Shown here: positions 15,422-27,418 of the stretch, in pieces
Layout: each line of letters begins with the position of its first letter
Position numbering within the stretch: position 1 is the first letter of the stretch
Source: Elusimicrobiota bacterium
Lineage (GTDB): Bacteria; Elusimicrobiota; Elusimicrobia; F11
Assembly (NCBI GenBank): GCA_046153645.1
Contig: JBJXGI010000095.1
Location: 1 to 39,181, forward strand
Length of the DNA stretch: 39,181 nucleotides
Reading direction: 5' to 3'
Position numbers and translations under genes: made by a program
Notes under the pieces: model-generated
Database searches by the model: none
The model's input: only the letters and a program-made list of their open reading frames with translations
What the model was told of the DNA's origin: nothing

Positions 15422-18400
15422 TTACTGAATAAAAAATTCGAGGATGAAATTTGACCGGTATAGTGTTTGGGGAAAAGCCATTGAAAAATCTGCTTCAAAA
15501 TACACATAATCTGGAGTTAGCGTGCCTGAAAAACCATTTCCCTGTGAGGTATGGCTTCCCAAAGCTTTTCTCAAGACAACATCATTACTTCCATCTTGAA
15601 ACGCCGTAATTCCAAAATCAGGAATATTAGGCGTCTGACGATCTTTCATAATAAGCCATTGAAATGAATTGGGGGTATTATCATAAGGACTATTAGCAGA
15701 AGGAATAGCGCTAGTAGAATCTTTAATACTCCAGGCCACATTTAATTTATTTGAAGTTGTCGGCTGACCTGCCTGATCCCGAATTAAACCAGAAGGATCA
15801 GAGTCAAGATTCGAAGTATTCCCCGGCGTTGGGTCAACGTATCGAGGAGAGAAAGAAGGGTTGGTATTATCCGTGTATATTTGTATTCCCCATGAAGGAT
15901 CGTCTGTAATAGGTTGCACATCCAAAACAAGCATTTGCTGGGCTCGTACCCAACTGGTTGGTAATGAAGCCACACTCCAAGTAATTGTACTGGTCTCAAC
16001 AAGATTATTAACATTTAATAATTTGGTTCGTGTGATGGGATAAACATTAAAGGGATTAAATTTCCAATATGCAAACATAAGCCAAGCCGCTGAACTGGCT
16101 GCTTGATTGGAAGGATCCATCATAAAACCATAAGCAGTTCCTACATTGGTGGCGTAAGCCAAACCTTGTCCATTGGGAGACGTATTAATAACCGCTTTTA
16201 GAATTTCATTTAAGTATTGATCACCCTTGGCTTTATTATCGGTGGCATAAAAAGCAACAGCCATTTGAGCAGTCCCTTCTAACCAAACAGCATCTTTATC
16301 GACAGGAGCTGGGGTCCCCGGGGGATTAACATAGGGACCAGAAAAATCAAACCCGGTCACTGGCACACCTGTTAAATCAGCTGGCTTCGTATTTAAAAAA
16401 TCAGTTTCCGCTTGAGAAAGCACCACCGTGTAAGAAGATAAAGTTAAAGGAGCCCAAGAATAACAATCAAGTCCTCGATCATTATTATTGGCACCACTGC
16501 TATATTTTCCAACTCGGAATCTATTTTCAGCTGGAATATACATTTGTGTTTCAAGCCATGTTTTAATTTGATCGGCATAAATGTTATAGGTATTGTTATT
16601 TCTGAATTTAGCGTAAGCTTTAAAAGTGGCATATACGTCTAATTGATGCTCTGTCGCTTTATTGGTCATTAAAACGCCACCGCTGGTTCTACCGAAGAAA
16701 ACGCTTCCATCCGTATCACGCAGTCCAGCGATAAAACTAGCCAAAGAATCAATGACCGTATCATATGTGGACTGATTGGTTACATTTCTATAGTGTAAAA
16801 GAGCCAAAAGCATCCAAGCATTCGGACCCACACTACGCTCACCATTAATAATCCCAAAAGAAGACGCGGTTGAACTTACTGTATATTCATTATGAAAGCC
16901 AATAACGCCGGAATCATGAATCCCTTTATAAACATCAAAAATTTTCTTAGCTAAAAGCGTATCGCGTTTATATGTCATGGCCATTCCGGCTAAGGCTTCA
17001 TCATAAGTAACGGCACGGGGTAAATTTTTAAAACTTCGCACCAAACCTGTTGGTTCTTGCAATTCTTTAAGCCCAACATACACTTTTTCCGGATCAGGAA
17101 ATCCGCCATCGCTGGTTAAAAACTTAACATCATCAATTCCAAATTCTCCGCCCACCACTGGACCAATTTGAGAAGATAGAGCACCAACAGCAAAATAAGT
17201 TTGAATTTGATCAAAATCAAGTAAAGGTTCTTTGGCTTTAAATTCTGAAAGGGCAATAAAGACTCTTTGCCATGTATTGTTAAGAGGAATTCCAATTTCA
17301 CTTAAACGAATTTTGGATCTTTCAGCGCCTGGTGCGATATTACCGGAGCGAATAGCCACTTGGAGATCATAGGATGTTTTAACCCAAAACGTGAGATATC
17401 CCGATTCGTAAAAACGCATAAACCGAGTTCCACTAGCACCATCAACATTGGTAAACCAAACAGCAAATGCGTCTTGTAACCCAGAATTATTAACAAGATT
17501 AAACGTGGCTCGTCTATAGGTGACCCCTTCAGGAGACCCTGGGTCATTTTGTTCATTAAGTCCCATGACAGTTCCAGGGTTAGAACCTTGCGCGACACCC
17601 ACATAACCACCGGAGCCTAAATCAGAGTAGACATTAAGTGATTGAGTCCAGGTAATAGTGGCCACTGTCACCGGAGCTGAAGAAATAATAGCTCCTTGTG
17701 TTGCACGAACAGAACCACTCGCAGGGACATTAACTGAAGTTAAAAGTGTACTCAACCCTTGCGTTGGGTTTACTGAACCAATTCCCCCCGTCACACTCCA
17801 AGTCGGGAATGCATCTACAGTAACCCCATTGGCGTCTTTACCAACCGCATAAAAACTCCGCAGAGATCCAAAGGGAACTGTAATTGAACTTGGGTTAATG
17901 ATGAAATGAGTCAAGGGGCCTGGTTGCGCCGTATCCCATCTTAAGTTGTCAATATAAAAAGTTTGTGCCGATGAAATATTGCCAATAGCAAAAATAGAAA
18001 ATAAAAGTTTGGTGCGAGAAATATCTGCCCAAGGACGAGGCCCGGCCAAATCTTTGATTGGTACCACAACAGAACGCCATGTATCATCAAAAGTAACATA
18101 GTTGCTTAAATTTACTTTTGAAAGTTCAGCCCCTGCGGGAGTGTTTCCGGACCGAACACCAACAATTAATTTATTATTGAGAGCCGCCGGCGCTTTGAGC
18201 CAAAACCGAAGTGAGCCGTCATAATATCGATTCATGTCACGCGTAATCGCATCAGAAGCACTCGTGGACCATTGAATAAACCAACCAGAAAAACTTGCTG
18301 CGGTAGAAGTGTTATCTGAATTAATTGTTGTTTTAAATCGTTTCACACCTTCACGAACATCAGTGCTTGATTCATCTAATAAAGTTGGCGCACTCACCCC

Positions 18401-19381: not shown

Positions 19382-20677
19382 TTATTTGGCCACCGCGATA
19401 AGGCCACTGGTTTTTTGGCCATCGACTGTATATTGATAAATATAAACACCACTTTCGACAATTTTCCCATTTTCGTCGCGACCGTCCCACTGTAAATCGG
19501 TGTTACTCATGACGGTTTTAATTCTATGACCCGTCATATCAAAAATATCGATTTTGACATTTGAAGTAATATCGCCCAAAACAAAATTCGCTGAATCATT
19601 GGTTCCGTCTCCATTAGGAGTAATGATTTTTTCCATAGGACGACGGCCTTCCGGGGTCAGTGCGCCTGCGGGTAAAAGTGCCACAAAATTAAGTTTTGCC
19701 AAACGAACTGAAATTGTATTGGTTTGACGGTTAATTGACCCTCCAATAATTCTCCATTGAAACCCATCCCACCAAGCCAAAGTTGTTTTTTCGACAGGAA
19801 TATTTGTTCCATCAATTAAGCCGTCTTGACCATTGGGAAAAGTAAAATCAGGATAACCAATGGCCAGTTGAGTCAACCCATCAAACAAAGGCTGAGCCTC
19901 TAACTTATAAACACGAAGAGCATTTTCAACACCTGGTGGAATAAGAGGGCTATTTAATGGAATTTCATCAATTGTAATTGTAGTGGGCCCATGAAGAATA
20001 CCAGCAGGAATATCTAAAGTCGTATTTCCAACAATCGGGTTTCCATCAACTAAATCAAAACGCCCACCTTCAATTCCAAATACTTGAGCCGCATTGGCTT
20101 GAACTCCCAAAGAAATAAAAGGATCGGGGTCAGCACCGCTCGTTTTTGGAAAAGTAATTTGAGATAAAACTTCCAACGTTCCATTAACATACCGAATTCG
20201 CTCGGCCACAATACGATACTGAAAAGTCCCTGTAACCACTTTATCAGAAGGAATTTGAAAGGCAAAAGCAATGGGATCACTTCCTTCAACTGGAGCTAAC
20301 TCTTCCAAAGAAGGTAAAGGCTGTCCTGGAACTCCGGATGGCGGTGGAATAAACCGGTATTGAATTCTTATTCGGACTTCACGAGAAGCTTCTGGACCAA
20401 AATCACTTCCTGGTTTGGTTCGAGATATAAATGGAATAAGACCAGGGGGAACCTCTTGCCCTGCTTCACCGACAATAATAATTTCTTTCGTTATTTCTGA
20501 AGTTCTAGTGAGTGGTGTATGTTGAATTTTTAAATCTTGCGCTTGAACAACTCCCCCTGTTACAACCGCAGCGCCCACAGTTTTAACACTCACTGATTGG
20601 AACGCAAAACCACTTTCGCTCATTCCAATAAGGAATGCAGCCAGTAAAAGAAAGTGATTTTTAATTTTCATCTTCAT
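19382..20677 (-). CDS. Secreted protein with pilin-type N-terminal strand, ZU5-like middle region and T9SS type-B-like (CHU_C/gliding-motility) C-terminal domain
   Basis: Mature N-terminus FQSVSVKTVGAAVVTGG; EGG...LDIPAGIL; ITPNGDGTND...IFDMTG...WDGRDENGKIVESGVYIY. Confidence 0.8.
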   Translation of the reverse strand: MKMKIKNHFLLLAAFLIGMSESGFAFQSVSVKTVGAAVVTGGVVQAQDLKIQHTPLTRTSEITKEIIIVGEAGQEVPPGLIPFISRTKPGSDFGPEASREVRIRIQYRFIPPPSGVPGQPLPSLEELAPVEGSDPIAFAFQIPSDKVVTGTFQYRIVAERIRYVNGTLEVLSQITFPKTSGADPDPFISLGVQANAAQVFGIEGGRFDLVDGNPIVGNTTLDIPAGILHGPTTITIDEIPLNSPLIPPGVENALRVYKLEAQPLFDGLTQLAIGYPDFTFPNGQDGLIDGTNIPVEKTTLAWWDGFQWRIIGGSINRQTNTISVRLAKLNFVALLPAGALTPEGRRPMEKIITPNGDGTNDSANFVLGDITSNVKIDIFDMTGHRIKTVMSNTDLQWDGRDENGKIVESGVYIYQYTVDGQKTSGLIAVAK

Positions 20678-20686
20678 ATAACTAAT

Positions 20687-21493
20687 TTATTTCAGCTCTA
20701 CTTTGCCGGATTCTGTTAATGTGAAATTTCGCTCACTTTTTTCAATCAAAAACTCTCGCTCAGAATCTAAAATATTGATATTGGCCTTATATTTTCCTGG
20801 AAGTAGCTTAATATCACGAACCGCAGATGAATATTCCCTCAATTTTCCAGGATAGGTAGGTTGCCCTTTAGGAAAAGAGAAATTAACCATCAACTCATCT
20901 TCCGAATTGTAGATTTCAATAAGTCCTTCTGGCCTTAAATGAACATTCCCCTTATTTCGAATAAGCAGTCCACAATTAAATGTATTTGAAGAAACTTTAA
21001 GCCCTAAAGCAGCAATGTCTCCATCTACTTTTTCTGTTCCAGAAACAGCAGCGTAAATAGCTGAACTCATGACAAATTCAATAGAGGAACGACTTGCGCT
21101 CTTGGTGCGAAAAGAAAGCATTCCCACAAGTTCACCCTTGGCGGTTTTGGGAATATTAACGGTAAATTTAACGGTTTTTGACTCATCTGGTTTCAATACA
21201 AAAGGAATTGAGTCAATGTTTAACCAATCAGCAACTTTTATTTTTTTATTTTCATTTAGAATAAACCAATTTTTCGTTGTGGGAATGACATCAATGGTTT
21301 CTGGATCTGTGTTGAGAATTGTAACTTGGCCAGACACTTTTTCGCCTGGGAGCATTTTAAATTTTTGAATATTGGGAGTAATCGAAAGCGCATGAATGCT
21401 AGAAAAATAACTGGTGAGAATAAGCCCCACAAACATAAAAATTCTTTTTACTCCATCTTTGGGACTTTGAAGGAGAGCGAATTTTTTGCTCAT
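20687..21493 (-). CDS. Putative periplasmic pilus-assembly chaperone (PapD/EcpB/DUF916-like two-Ig-domain protein)
   Basis: Signal peptide ending SIHA, then LSITP...LPGEKVSGQVTILN, W...FVLKPDESKTVKFTVNIP, and IRNKGNVHLRP. Start moved downstream of the hairpin. Confidence 0.65.
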   Translation of the reverse strand: MSKKFALLQSPKDGVKRIFMFVGLILTSYFSSIHALSITPNIQKFKMLPGEKVSGQVTILNTDPETIDVIPTTKNWFILNENKKIKVADWLNIDSIPFVLKPDESKTVKFTVNIPKTAKGELVGMLSFRTKSASRSSIEFVMSSAIYAAVSGTEKVDGDIAALGLKVSSNTFNCGLLIRNKGNVHLRPEGLIEIYNSEDELMVNFSFPKGQPTYPGKLREYSSAVRDIKLLPGKYKANINILDSEREFLIEKSERNFTLTESGKVELK

Positions 21494-21540
21494 TATTTGG
21501 GACCCCGTTATTATATTCATATTATTTTTAAGATAAGACC

Positions 21541-21566
21541 AGCGGAGCCGCTGTTGCGGCTCCGCT
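21541..21566 (-). terminator. GC-rich 11-bp hairpin just after the putative major pilin gene (leaky terminator or mRNA stabiliser)
   Basis: agcggagccgc-tgtt-gcggctccgct; only a weak U-tract follows on the minus strand. Confidence 0.7.
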
Positions 21567-21584
21567 AGCAAATCTTTTTAACTC

Positions 21585-22361
21585 TTACTGAATATAAGCT
21601 TCAACTCTCAAGTTGGAGCGGTAAGTCTCCTGAACTTGCGCAGTGATGAAATTGCCTTGTAAGTAAACAAAGCTATTGGCACCATTGGGATGAGCTCCGA
21701 AGTCAGCTGGCGCTTGACCGAAGTGAATTTCGGCTCCACCAGCAGCTGTGTTGGTACGAATCATTGTAATGAAGGCTTCACCATCAACAAAGGCCAATGA
21801 GTTCAAAGCAGGAATATTTTGATCATTATATCTGTCTTTGAAATACAACCATTGGAAACTGTTGGGATCGCCTGCATTGTTTGGTTCAGCAGATGTAGGC
21901 GCTGTGATGGAAGAAGCTTTGATTGTCCACGCCATAGGAAGCGGTGACGCACTTGTCACACCAGAAGCTCCTTTCACTAAACCAGCGGCCATAGAGTCAG
22001 GATTGGTTTTATCACCAGGAGTGGGGTCAACGAACCTTGTGGTGGCATCGGACGCGGTATTATCAGAATAAATCTGAACTCCGCTTCCTACTCCGAGTAC
22101 AGTGGCATTCAAGAGAAGACCTTGATCGGCTCTCTTCCAGCCAGTTGAGGGAGGGGTCACACCAGACCAGGTAACAGTCCCACGAGGGGTTGTCCAGTTA
22201 CTGATATCACGGATATTCACGGACACGTTCGAGGTATTGGATCCGCCAACTAAAACAGAGGCAGCAACCGTAGCTCGACTGACAGATTGGAACGCGTGTA
22301 CAGGCGTCCAAACTCCGAGAGTAGCCGCGAACAGACTAAGAACTACTATTCGCTTATTCAT
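21585..22361 (-). CDS. Secreted beta-rich protein, putative major pilin/fibre subunit
   Basis: Strong SD (aaaggag), 23-aa signal peptide, small-residue-rich and Cys-free; shares its N-terminal strand with 19382-20677 and its body with the C-terminus of 15422-19378. Confidence 0.7.
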   Translation of the reverse strand: MNKRIVVLSLFAATLGVWTPVHAFQSVSRATVAASVLVGGSNTSNVSVNIRDISNWTTPRGTVTWSGVTPPSTGWKRADQGLLLNATVLGVGSGVQIYSDNTASDATTRFVDPTPGDKTNPDSMAAGLVKGASGVTSASPLPMAWTIKASSITAPTSAEPNNAGDPNSFQWLYFKDRYNDQNIPALNSLAFVDGEAFITMIRTNTAAGGAEIHFGQAPADFGAHPNGANSFVYLQGNFITAQVQETYRSNLRVEAYIQ

Positions 22362-23646: not shown

Positions 23647-25176
23647 CTAAGCCGTTTTTTCAAACTGATGGGCAATGTTCCGGTAAAAACAAATACTGCC
23701 TTTTTGATTTTTTTTAGCCCAATAAAGCGCGCGGTCAGCCGCTTCAATTAAATCACGGCCCGTACGCGCGTCCGAGGTATACATAGAAATACCCAAGGTT
23801 ACGCTGACATGAATAGATTGCCCACTCGACGTAGGAAGGGCTGTTTTCTTGAGAGCCGAAGTTAATCGTTCTGCCATCAACCAAGCTTCCTGCTCTGTTA
23901 TTTCTGGCAAAAGCATGACGAATTCATCACCAGCGTATCGCGCTGCTAAGTCAATGCGCCTGGTATTAACTTTAATTGTTTGGGCCAGGAATTCGAGTAC
24001 TCGATCTCCTAATAAATGCCCATGGGTATCATTAATCTGTTTGAATGAATCAACATCCATCATGACCAAAGCCAAGTTATATGAATACCGATCGGCTCGA
24101 TCCATTTCCTCTTTTAAACGCTCTTGGAAATACCGGTAAACATAGAGTTTGGTTAATCCATCGGTAATCGCTTGACGCTCAATATCCTCAAATAAACGGG
24201 CGTTTAAAATTGCCATTCCAACTTGAACAGCTAACGAACGGAGTGATTCAATTTGATCATCATCTATCATTTGTTGGCTCAATAAATTATCAACAGCCAA
24301 ACATCCCACCACTTGACCATTAACAATTAATGGAATATAGGCAACCCTACCACCAACCACATGAGCATTAAACCCACTCGCATTCGATAAAATAGCATCA
24401 ACAAGAGAATTAATTCCTGATCTTAAAACATATGTCTCTTGTTCTAAATCAAGAAATCGGTCTGGAATTTGCATCCCCGCATAGCCCTTCACTTCAGATC
24501 GCTCAGAATCAACCAGATAAAACCTGACTCGGTCAAAATTCAGGCGCCTGACAATACTTTCTGCCACAGACTCCAACATTTCTCTTAAACGAGGCCTCTC
24601 GAATACGGCAGAGGCGACTTCAGAGCCTGCTTTTAAAAATTGGGCCCTTTTTTTATTTTTATCTTCTTTATGTAATTGAATTAATTTTGTTGAAATAATT
24701 TCACCTATATCTTCTAACAAGGGAAAATCTCTTGCTCCATTTCTACGTTTTCCATAAAAAGAAGGAAGATGCCCCAAAATTTTTCCACTGGCCAAAGCAT
24801 GAGGTCGTTCTATTTGAAGAGCTCCAATTAATTCTGCCCCAGACTGGAGCGGAATAAAGGCCACCCAAGGTCTTTTACTAGAAATAACAACTGGCTTTCT
24901 CTCAAAAACCAACGGTGCCAATAAACTGTTTTGACCAATAATAATTTCTTCTTCACCCTCATAAAGTGCTCCTTCATGAAGAATATATTGCATAACCATG
25001 GTCTTTTTCTGAGGAACCCACCAAAAAATAGAAACCGAAGACAAATTAAGGCGATCACTCAAATACCCCATCCCACCTTGAAACATTGACTCAATATTTT
25101 CCGATGATTGATTCAATTGGTTTTGAAAATTCCGAAGGAGTGACTCGAACATGGTTAAAGCTCTAAACTGACTCAT
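23647..25176 (-). CDS. GAF-domain diguanylate cyclase
   Basis: TDGLTKLY, DVDSFKQINDTHGHLLGD, RxxD I-site (RRID), RYAGDEF; GAF regions upstream; no obvious TM helices. Confidence 0.92.
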   Translation of the reverse strand: MSQFRALTMFESLLRNFQNQLNQSSENIESMFQGGMGYLSDRLNLSSVSIFWWVPQKKTMVMQYILHEGALYEGEEEIIIGQNSLLAPLVFERKPVVISSKRPWVAFIPLQSGAELIGALQIERPHALASGKILGHLPSFYGKRRNGARDFPLLEDIGEIISTKLIQLHKEDKNKKRAQFLKAGSEVASAVFERPRLREMLESVAESIVRRLNFDRVRFYLVDSERSEVKGYAGMQIPDRFLDLEQETYVLRSGINSLVDAILSNASGFNAHVVGGRVAYIPLIVNGQVVGCLAVDNLLSQQMIDDDQIESLRSLAVQVGMAILNARLFEDIERQAITDGLTKLYVYRYFQERLKEEMDRADRYSYNLALVMMDVDSFKQINDTHGHLLGDRVLEFLAQTIKVNTRRIDLAARYAGDEFVMLLPEITEQEAWLMAERLTSALKKTALPTSSGQSIHVSVTLGISMYTSDARTGRDLIEAADRALYWAKKNQKGSICFYRNIAHQFEKTA

Positions 25177-26450
25177 GCGGCAACTCCCGTGTTAACCTTG
25201 GGACGATAACGATGGATTGATAAAGTTGTTTTTATATCATGATTGGCCACTGCAATTTCTTGCTGAAGTAAAGGCAAAGAATACGCTTTATCTCGAATTG
25301 ACGACAAAACCCTTCCTCCCATTTTGGCCAATATCTGCTCAACGGAACCTAATTCGACGATTTTTGGTAATCGCCTCGCGCATGAAAAAGAATCCCAAAA
25401 AACATTTCTTGCCCAAGGGAAACGCTCAAATAATACATCCATGACAGATAAATGCGCAGGAAGAGCCCCAATATTTCGAGCATGCGATAACAAGCGTTCC
25501 GGTTCAGACATAAATTGAATAAATTGCCACGCCAAGTCTTTTTCTTTGGAATAGTTAAGAACCGATAAATTACTTCCACCTAAAAAAGTAAAACGCCCCT
25601 TTGGCCCAGAAGGGAGAGGAACAATTCCGACATTTTCAATGACTTCAGGTTGAGCATACTGATATTGGGGGTTAAAACATGTATCAACAGGCCAACTGCC
25701 AGACAACTGCATAGCGGCATGCCCTGTAAAAAAATTTCCTTCGGGCATAAAATTATTTGGAATAGGCATGAGTCCGTCATTAATTAAATCAAAATAATAA
25801 ACACAACCTTCAATAAGACGTGCGTGAGTTAAACTCGCTTCCTTCGTTTCTTCTGCTATAAATTCTCCCCCCGCACCCCAAACCCATGGGGCCAAGTCGT
25901 GCATTTGTACTGATATTTTTTGCCCGGGAAATCCAAGAGGCACTTTAATTTTCTCTGTTTCCCCTTTTTTAATATATGAATGAATTTCTTGGCATGCGGA
26001 TTTCAGACCCTTCCAATCCTCTAAAGAACTTACTTTAATTCCCATTTTTTCAAAAATATCCCGACGATAATACAGCACCCGAATATCAGTAAACCAAGGA
26101 ACTCCAAATAAATCATGGGAAAAAGAACCGTCTGATGAATCACCAATCCAACCTGCCGCTTGCGCGTGAGAATTCAAAATGTCAGAGGGAACTTTATCAA
26201 GAGCATTAAGATAACTAAGCGTTGTCGTCCAGGTTGTTCCCACTTGAATAACATCGGGAGAAGAAATAGAACGCCCTTTAACAACATCCATGAGCTGATT
26301 CCAGGCTAAAGACCAGGGATGAATAGAAAGCTGCACCTTCACTTCTGGATGAATCTGCTCAAACTCATTAATTAAATTTGAAACCGCTGCTCGGGTCGCA
26401 AACCCAGCATTTGGCATAACCCAAAAATGTAGTTCTTTTCTATAACTCAC
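25173..26450 (-). CDS. Sugar ABC-type solute-binding-fold protein lacking a signal peptide
   Basis: PDVIQVGTTW, GVPWFTDIRVLYYRRD, FLGGSNL; GTG start with SD ggag and an in-frame TAG 6 codons upstream. Confidence 0.85.
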   Translation of the reverse strand: MSYRKELHFWVMPNAGFATRAAVSNLINEFEQIHPEVKVQLSIHPWSLAWNQLMDVVKGRSISSPDVIQVGTTWTTTLSYLNALDKVPSDILNSHAQAAGWIGDSSDGSFSHDLFGVPWFTDIRVLYYRRDIFEKMGIKVSSLEDWKGLKSACQEIHSYIKKGETEKIKVPLGFPGQKISVQMHDLAPWVWGAGGEFIAEETKEASLTHARLIEGCVYYFDLINDGLMPIPNNFMPEGNFFTGHAAMQLSGSWPVDTCFNPQYQYAQPEVIENVGIVPLPSGPKGRFTFLGGSNLSVLNYSKEKDLAWQFIQFMSEPERLLSHARNIGALPAHLSVMDVLFERFPWARNVFWDSFSCARRLPKIVELGSVEQILAKMGGRVLSSIRDKAYSLPLLQQEIAVANHDIKTTLSIHRYRPKVNTGVAA

Positions 26451-26503: not shown

Positions 26504-27418
26504 TCATAATTCCCATCTAATTCCATCAATATCGACTGTTAAAGGTGTATTCAACAGTCCTGCCACTAAAGCAAAAGGCACATTTATAGAAGTTTTTACC
26601 AAGCCAGGATAAGATGCTCCAATGGGCAAAGATATTTCCTGCCAATCAGTGCTTAACCGATTAAAACCATTAGAACCACTGACCAAAATAAAAGAAACGG
26701 TTTGTGGTGTCCGGTCACTAACATTAATTCGTATTTGTTCACCCACAGATAAAGTGCGATTAAGTCTCATCGTAAACTTAAGCGTACTTAATGAAGAAAG
26801 ATTTTTTGATAATCCTGCTGTTGGACCCGGAGCGCATCCGACACCGGGAGAGGTGGCCTTATCTAATGTAATTCCCCAAAAATCACCAGTAACCAAATTT
26901 GTCGCTCGCTGATATTTGGTTCCTTCAGGGGTGTAACCTGTGGATACTTCGCTTAAAAAATTAGATGGACATATCGTAAAAATATCACTTGAAATCCCTG
27001 CTTCGGAGGGAAGACCATCGTCGGTATAAACATTAAAAAAAGATGAAACTGGTTTGTAGGCCACAACCGCAATTTGAACGGTGGTGGTAAGACCGTCATA
27101 AGTAGCCGTAACAACTGCATCACCTAACTGATTGGCTTGAAACGTAACTGTTGGACCAATGGAAGAGCTAAGAGTTCCAACAGCACTTGAGGAAACAGTC
27201 CAAGTTGGAGTTACATTAATATCCTGACCATTTAACTGCCCTTTTGCAATAAGAGTGACACTTTCATTTTTAACAACGGAGGTCGCTGGAGGAGTAACAG
27301 AAAATTCATAAGTAGAAGCACTCAGGCGATTTTTTTTGGAGCAGGAAGAAAGAATAAATAAAGAACCTAACATACAGGTAAAAAGAAAAAAAGATTTATT
27401 CAAACGGTTTAATAACAT
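26504..27418 (-). CDS. Lipoprotein with Ig-like and CBM-like domains
   Basis: Lipobox LSSC; Ig+CBM pair resembling modules in 15422-19378 (PTWxV, NVYxD, PEG, WQEISLPI, IDGIRW). Confidence 0.75.
   Translation of the reverse strand: MLLNRLNKSFFLFTCMLGSLFILSSCSKKNRLSASTYEFSVTPPATSVVKNESVTLIAKGQLNGQDINVTPTWTVSSSAVGTLSSSIGPTVTFQANQLGDAVVTATYDGLTTTVQIAVVAYKPVSSFFNVYTDDGLPSEAGISSDIFTICPSNFLSEVSTGYTPEGTKYQRATNLVTGDFWGITLDKATSPGVGCAPGPTAGLSKNLSSLSTLKFTMRLNRTLSVGEQIRINVSDRTPQTVSFILVSGSNGFNRLSTDWQEISLPIGASYPGLVKTSINVPFALVAGLLNTPLTVDIDGIRWEL

Follow-up and report, generated by a model that had tools for sequence, protein, structure and literature searches.

The closest described relative of the system analyzed here is the Elr/WxL pilus of Enterococcus faecalis (Sleutel et al., bioRxiv 10.64898/2026.10.17.759780), for which the accessible part of the preprint reports a cryogenic electron microscopy structure with the donor strand of ElrD antiparallel to the last strand (F) and finds the system only in Bacillota. 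A second precedent is Bacteroidota's type IX secretion system (T9SS) where, in the available portions of the respective papers, type B tails remain attached to their cognate barrels (PMC9143113, PMC12618676) and substrates exit SprA tail-first (PMC10994853). We studied a 39,181-nucleotide stretch from an Elusimicrobiota bacterium (GCA_046153645.1, contig JBJXGI010000095.1; hereafter the window), in which a minus-strand run codes, in order, for an outer-membrane barrel (V), a predicted major pilin (P), a two-domain chaperone (C), a tail-bearing anchor (A) and a predicted tip (T). Our literature search on WxL/DUF916, Elusimicrobiota and Endomicrobium pili, and T9SS beyond Bacteroidota, in which subscription papers were thinly covered, recovered no description of this system, and the available part of one Endomicrobium paper (PMC8809381) mentions only type IV/Tad and type II pilins. 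We consider it likely that A forms the donor-only base of a donor-strand fibre assembled by a chaperone, docked on V via its T9SS-type tail.

The starting point is a short stretch shared by two otherwise dissimilar proteins. Translation of the window gives FQSVSRATVAASVLVGG for the mature N-terminus of P (22292-22242) and FQSVSVKTVGAAVVTGG for that of A (20602-20552), with 11 of 17 residues identical, thereby reproducing what an earlier note had read from the DNA. Both are preceded by a hydrophobic leader and an A-x-A-like site (P has V-H-A and A has G-F-A), and signal-peptidase cleavage is predicted directly before each strand. The likeness ends there, as the note had also held: in a BLASTP comparison of P and A this stretch is the sole similarity (E 6e-4), all other pieces having E ≥ 0.35. 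Its third element, a strand ending in GG, stands for this pair and fails as a general trait, the terminal GG being lineage-specific across related operons. When the P 17-mer was compared with 905,212 17-residue windows, taken from all six-frame open stretches of at least 100 codons across the genome, the top non-self match was A with its 11 identities, the next four reaching 8; a chance origin of the match was accordingly rejected. In the AlphaFold monomer models, both strands appear unstructured: the first 15 modelled residues of P have a predicted local distance difference test score (pLDDT) below 50 with the remainder above 90, and the first 20 residues of A have a pLDDT of 51-60.

We then asked how the two N-termini behave across homologous operons. 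From 80 fetched regions, we retained 62 operons from 49 Elusimicrobiota genomes with intact N-termini of both P and A, leaving out loci where either was missing or cut (e.g., L050, L060, L061, L066-L068, L093, L095, L101 and L110-L112) and second anchors with no pilin of their own in view (L052-L054, L100, L107 and L109); loci of a mirror type, described below, were tested apart. The strands were anchored by a pilin-derived matrix, with 26 of 135 anchors hand-set or hand-corrected. Own-operon P/A pairs have a BLOSUM score of 21.3 against 4.9 for other operons, a value reached by none of 20,000 permutations. Ranked against all 62 pilins, an anchor's own partner comes first in 20 cases and among the first five in 37. 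Among 31 tree-independent pairs, drawn from a tree of the pilin bodies, 23 were positive, 5 negative and 3 zero (sign test p 0.0009), and the result holds with uncorrected automatic anchors, one of which is still hand-set (21 positive, 7 negative). The lengths of the two strands are likewise correlated (Spearman 0.49, n = 55, with heuristic cleavage sites). Two downstream control segments showed no co-variation. Swapping operons within the same genome gave 14 of 14 positive comparisons, by which genome composition was rejected as the cause of the match. The check proposed in the earlier note thus came out in favor of its donor-strand reading: other genomes retain the match, and the two strands vary together there.

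These data also bear on the notion that the shared N-terminus, rather than being a structural strand, is left over from gene conversion at the 5' end or marks the proteins for processing or glycosylation, to which we assign a very small probability. In its favor, the strand is rich in Ser and Thr and begins exactly at the predicted cleavage site, and a slight own-operon similarity reaches into the signal peptide; in that control, the own-operon excess is smaller (z 4.3) and the pairs are non-significant (18 positive, 11 negative), a result that also counts against the donor-strand reading. Yet identical residues are encoded by the same codon in 151 of 359 cases versus 145.6 expected, and this absence of an excess indicates that the match is kept at the protein level and led us to reject recent gene conversion. 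Furthermore, the motif turns up in just 1 of 66 T and 2 of 59 C proteins, which use the same route, and it is operon-specific even within one genome. It also moves to a lectin where the anchor has an acceptor domain, and couples to groove edges in the analysis that follows. That the shared 17-mer works as a donor β-strand is, in our assessment, highly probable.

A mean-field coupling analysis of 219 pilins recovers intramolecular strand pairings of the pilin. For the N-terminal strand, its top-ranked solutions are an antiparallel register against the C-terminal strand, running from 31-252 to 39-244, and a parallel register against residues 59-66, with outward positions alternating. When the N-terminal block was shuffled 12 times, the best scores were 0.59-1.04, compared to 1.33 for the real alignment. 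Coevolution thus yields the geometry of a donor strand, and the pilin is predicted to be an incomplete immunoglobulin (Ig)-like subunit with a free N-terminal extension antiparallel to strand F. Docking of the strand within its own chain was rejected, as the link formed by residues 39-43 is probably too short to return the strand at 43-52 beside residue 255.

The P family is present in 73 of 401 sampled genomes of the phylum and comprises 878 representatives at 50% clustering, and a pattern scan across genomes returned two loci, one in an uncultured Elusimicrobia genome and the other a short, weak Phycisphaerales match. The nearest folds to the P model are donor-strand filament subunits (TLP-1, CS17, CsuE, CfaE, Caf1 and TasA) along with some Ig domains of glycosidases, the top matches being TLP-1a/b (Z 6.4 and 6.0) and TasA (Z 4.9-5.0); the ESM Atlas gave no usable match for P. 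A strong hairpin follows 41 of 73 P genes, compared to 2 of 65 for T, 6 of 68 for A, 7 of 61 for C and 10 of 50 for V. It likely lets P mRNA exceed that of the downstream genes, fitting a major subunit; a promoter scan was at chance level (20 found, 19.4 expected). In one genome (G249), a pilin open reading frame (ORF) is without its 5' end (L050:7258-7923), reflecting a broken gene or an assembly error.

A likely excess of pilin matters for a further alternative, namely that the same strand chemistry yields a short stalk for display, built from A, T and one or a few copies of P, in place of a long pilus. Length would be limited if assembly ended in the periplasm before export, and tips with carbohydrate-binding modules (CBMs) and glycosidase domains need only a stalk. 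Against this, the hairpin suggests an excess of P, several related operons have two to three pilin genes, and the P strand couples to P's own groove, such that P can chain on P. We therefore regard the stalk as unlikely.

By Pfam, the chaperone C shows a weak match to WxLIP. When 54 C proteins were combined into a profile, its best PDB matches over the full length were the Enterococcus WxLIP structures 9I25/9I1Y (E 0.0016), and hhalign of this profile against a Paenibacillus DUF916 protein gives 97.6% probability. The homology is remote: among the 54 chaperones, 7 match PF06030 and 2 match PF11797, below the Pfam cut-offs. None matches PapD_N (PF00345) at E ≤ 0.01, and a C-terminal membrane helix was found in none of 59 chaperones.

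The anchor A carries no pilin domain. Its C-terminal tail scores 40.8 bits with CHU_C (cut-off 27) and 38.2 bits with TIGR04131 (cut-off 35), and its model matches the T9SS substrate tail 8GLK_D with Z 9.7 and a root-mean-square deviation (rmsd) of 2.1 over 75 residues. The TIGR04131 match places it among the type B C-terminal domains; this assignment rests on the hidden Markov model, since 8GLK_D is itself a type A substrate tail. V scores with PorV/PorQ models below their cut-offs, the searched set listing no PorP model. Within 4.5 kb of P or A, V was found in 48, C in 55 and T in 53 of the 62 operons, with some misses falling at contig ends, and V directly follows A in 33. Across the genome, a V-like gene accompanies 12 of 15 tail-bearing ORFs, whether by fusion, as a neighbour or within the same operon. 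Docking of the A tail on V appears rather more probable than otherwise. A DUF4082 protein with a T9SS-type tail is also coded at 161-1609 of the window, with no V-like neighbour in view, and elsewhere (G000:C79:12477-38690) an 8738-codon open frame ends in such a tail and is followed by a 113-codon tail-only ORF. Tandem operons occur in L052-L054, L084, L086, L107 and L109, with each successive anchor beside a V gene; in L052-L054, one pilin is followed by two tip/anchor/barrel sets.

T ends in a P-like acceptor domain and lacks the donor strand, and together with A the locus has the Elr-type pairing of a predicted acceptor-only tip with a predicted donor-only terminator. T residues 770-1110 (window 16049-17071) have no sequence match in the PDB; the nearest Atlas clusters are unnamed, and the nearest named ones are helical-barrel glycosidases. 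Other tips in related operons carry GH2, GH72-like, GH81 or glycoamylase domains. One tip gene (G079, L046:6240-7591) has an internal TGA, again a broken gene or an assembly error.

Taken together, these features suggest the following mechanism. All five proteins would reach the periplasm by Sec, where C would fill the groove of P and of the last domain of T. The chain would begin at T, which only accepts; P would be added by strand exchange, the strand of each copy entering the groove left open in the following P. A, which has a matching strand but lacks a pilin domain, would fill the final groove, end the chain and fasten the fibre to the outer membrane. The strands of P and A would stay alike because both must fit one groove. 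We hold these periplasmic steps, from groove filling to the maintained likeness of the strands, to be very likely when taken together. The chain would then exit tail-first via a SprA-like translocon, with P and T riding on A, and remain on V, displaying the glycan-binding and probable glycosidase domains of T.

The export step depends on the outer-membrane machinery. No usher (PF00577) was found in the own genome (99.7% complete) or in five other genomes, although the E. coli control was matched, and no operon that we read has a large barrel gene. We did detect a candidate distant SprA/Sov homolog in an 1800-residue ORF (L117:11155-16560, G000:C100), and its relatives are present in 356 of 401 genomes of the phylum, including 281 of 293 high-quality ones, which suggests a minimal type IX-like system across Elusimicrobiota; a GldM search gave no match, and neither did its control. 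Export by hitch-hiking through this SprA-like translocon is offered as a tentative proposal. A different possibility is that the pore for assembly and export is formed by V, or by some usher-like protein elsewhere that went unrecognised, with the SprA-like protein uninvolved. V is operon-linked, and on the Deinococcus sp. D7000 plasmid CP058536 (L119:4951-10553) a pilin-like gene, a WxLIP-like chaperone, a second pilin-like gene and an usher-like protein occur together; that 1018-residue barrel has no Usher Pfam match, showing that Pfam can miss atypical ushers. However, beyond the lack of a large barrel gene, V-like genes go with many unrelated tail-bearing proteins in the genome, and PorV-type barrels are small and act as shuttles (PMC10994853). 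This makes such a pore quite improbable.

A further view comes from operons of mirror polarity, found in nine lineages (G370, G049, G349, G133, G373, G177, G170, G038 and G014); those of G370, G049, G349 and G133 often have two chaperones. Here, the tail-bearing protein opens with the acceptor domain of a pilin and in most cases has no strand, and a strand instead heads CBM11/CBM30-like proteins that carry neither pilin domain nor tail. Nine operons were tested, their boundaries drawn by eye, and for 6 of 12 lectins, in 4 operons, the pilin of the same operon came first among 82 (one each in G370, G349 and G133 and three in G049; permutation p 0.0005). One donor-only and one acceptor-only end are thus retained while the cargoes swap, matching the requirement of a head-to-tail chain. 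Both fibre polarities may exist because no usher imposes a direction. We cautiously propose a new route of pilus biogenesis in diderms, in which a WxL-type chaperone would build the donor-strand fibre within the periplasm and a single terminal, type IX-tailed subunit would drag this non-covalent polymer as a whole through a minimal SprA onto a PorV-like barrel of its own, in both polarities; we rate this full scheme as somewhat doubtful.

Several observations weigh against the docked donor-strand fibre or blunt the evidence for it. On its own, the strand motif is not specific: it reaches at least 5 bits in 40 of 60 A and also in 26 of 54 V, where the score comes from a conserved stretch inside the protein that shows no co-variation with P (z -0.1). 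The pair test is non-significant for positions 1-5 alone (16 positive, 11 negative) and for the four inward positions alone (10 positive, 3 negative; sign test p 0.09). The couplings are modest, a third register (32-195) ties at window 7, and the shuffled null also strips relatedness. All fold matches of P are weak (Z 4-6.4, the best ones being donor-strand filaments at Z 5-6.4; the top match has Z 6.4 and rmsd 4.5 over 152 residues), and Foldseek gave no match for its model at E ≤ 0.001. V matches NF033709 with E 1.9e-13, yet below the family cut-off, and the SprA-like ORF matches three TIGR04189 segments at best with E 7e-14 and 49.6 bits, under the cut-off of 200. The near-universality of SprA in the phylum means that its co-occurrence with the pilus operon tells little, and the other 6 of 12 mirror lectins do not pick their own pilin. 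Finally, binding, fibre formation and export are predictions here.

Table 1. Features of the proposed fibre locus in the window, with mirror-polarity operons from other loci
Feature	Position	Strand	Remarks
T, predicted acceptor-only tip, 1318 residues	15422..19378	-	CBM30-like modules, helical barrel at about 770-1110 that is probably glycosidase-like, pilin domain at the C-terminus
P-like acceptor domain of T, without donor strand	15425..16027	-	36% identity to P residues 62-258, E 7e-30
A, predicted donor-only base subunit, 431 residues	19382..20677	-	Signal peptide, donor strand, Ig/FnIII-like, ZU5-like, T9SS-type tail
T9SS-type C-terminal domain of A	19385..19648	-	CHU_C, TIGR04131 and model match
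ZU5-like domain of A	about 20101-19667	-	Model match, Z 11.2, rmsd 2.5, 118 residues
Ig/FnIII-like domain of A	about 20539-20093	-	
Putative donor strand of anchor A	20552..20602	-	Mature residues 1-17; inward V34, A36, V38, T40
C, two-domain chaperone, WxLIP-related (DUF916/DUF3324)	20687..21571	-	True start probably downstream of 21571
GC-rich hairpin, 14 bp	21538..21569	-	Just 3' of P stop codon
P, predicted major pilin, 258 residues	21585..22361	-	Signal peptide, donor strand, incomplete Ig-like acceptor domain
C-terminal strand of P, residues 244-258, predicted to pair antiparallel with the donor strand	21588..21632	-	Couplings
P residues 62-66 (TVTWS), predicted second groove edge parallel to donor strand	22164..22178	-	Couplings; coil in monomer model
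Putative donor strand of pilin P	22242..22292	-	Mature residues 1-17; inward V32, A34, V36, V38
V, PorV/PorQ-like outer-membrane barrel, 333 residues	22419..23420	-	Predicted docking partner of A tail
Mirror operon (G370)	L090:3832-9045		
Mirror operon (G049)	L128:5415-13151		
Mirror operon (G349)	L130:5031-11155		
Mirror operon (G133)	L133:3964-8899		

Directly upstream of V (window 23647-26450) lie genes for GAF-GGDEF and sugar-binding proteins, and similar genes recur in L032, L033, L034, L036, L061 and L097, hinting at sugar- and cyclic di-GMP-linked control. Beyond these, an upstream cluster for sugar uptake with GH2 includes a lipoprotein-like ORF of 304 residues (window 26504-27418) that resembles T residues 492-630.

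If correct, these findings extend a Gram-positive chaperone and donor-strand pilus design to a diderm phylum, with both known surface attachments, usher and sortase, replaced by type IX secretion-like parts. Should the fibre indeed cross SprA, type IX secretion would move non-covalent polymers and work outside Bacteroidota. With the co-varying strands, nature supplies 62 donor/acceptor pairs on which strand specificity could be tested, and through the mirror operons it becomes testable whether polarity matters without an usher. The system also suggests how the poorly known Elusimicrobiota bind and digest glycans.

Among known fibres, the environmental TLP-1a/b fibrils (9IKJ, 9IKK; PMC11494351) and TasA (8AUR) share with P a similar size and an N-terminal donor strand, although at 7-11% identity and an rmsd of about 4.5 membership in the same family is without support. 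The system works like a chaperone-usher pilus without being one. Type 1, P, CFA/I, Csu and Caf1 pili have an usher and a PapD chaperone, neither of which was found here; moreover, the base subunit here has no pilin domain and the pilin is larger, with long insertions. Membership in the classical chaperone-usher class, to which the earlier note had likened the locus, was therefore rejected, the chaperone being WxLIP-related. With T9SS type B, as set out in the portions available of PMC9143113, PMC12618676 and PMC10994853, the locus shares a tail above the TIGR04131 cut-off, a small gene-linked barrel of its own and a SprA-like translocon gene, and the linkage of V and tail resembles the shuttle pattern of type B tails with cognate PorP/SprF (PMC9143113, PMC12618676). 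It differs in lying outside Bacteroidota, in a barrel that is PorV/PorQ-like below cut-off, in its distant SprA homolog and in a tail-bearing protein that would carry a non-covalent polymer.

The closest system is the Gram-positive Elr/WxL pilus. As presented in the accessible part of the preprint, it shares with this locus a pilin whose donor strand lies at the N-terminus, a tip with a C-terminal acceptor domain only, a donor-only terminator (ElrB, placed there by modelling), the absence of an usher and a DUF916/DUF3324-type chaperone, which is homologous here. The Elr donor pattern x-[G/A]10-x-[V/I]12-x-F14 is echoed here: among 73 P strands, 66 have A10 and 48 have F14, and among 62 A strands the counts are 44 and 37. 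The WxL domain itself (PF13731) was found in none of 66 pilins at E ≤ 0.1 and nowhere in the genome, and hhalign of P against eight WxL domains gave a probability of 0.05%. In contrast to Elr/WxL, the host is a diderm, the chaperone is without a membrane helix, the terminator is a 400-residue Ig-ZU5-tail protein encoded next to a PorV-like barrel gene rather than an LPxTG sortase substrate, and operons of mirror polarity exist.

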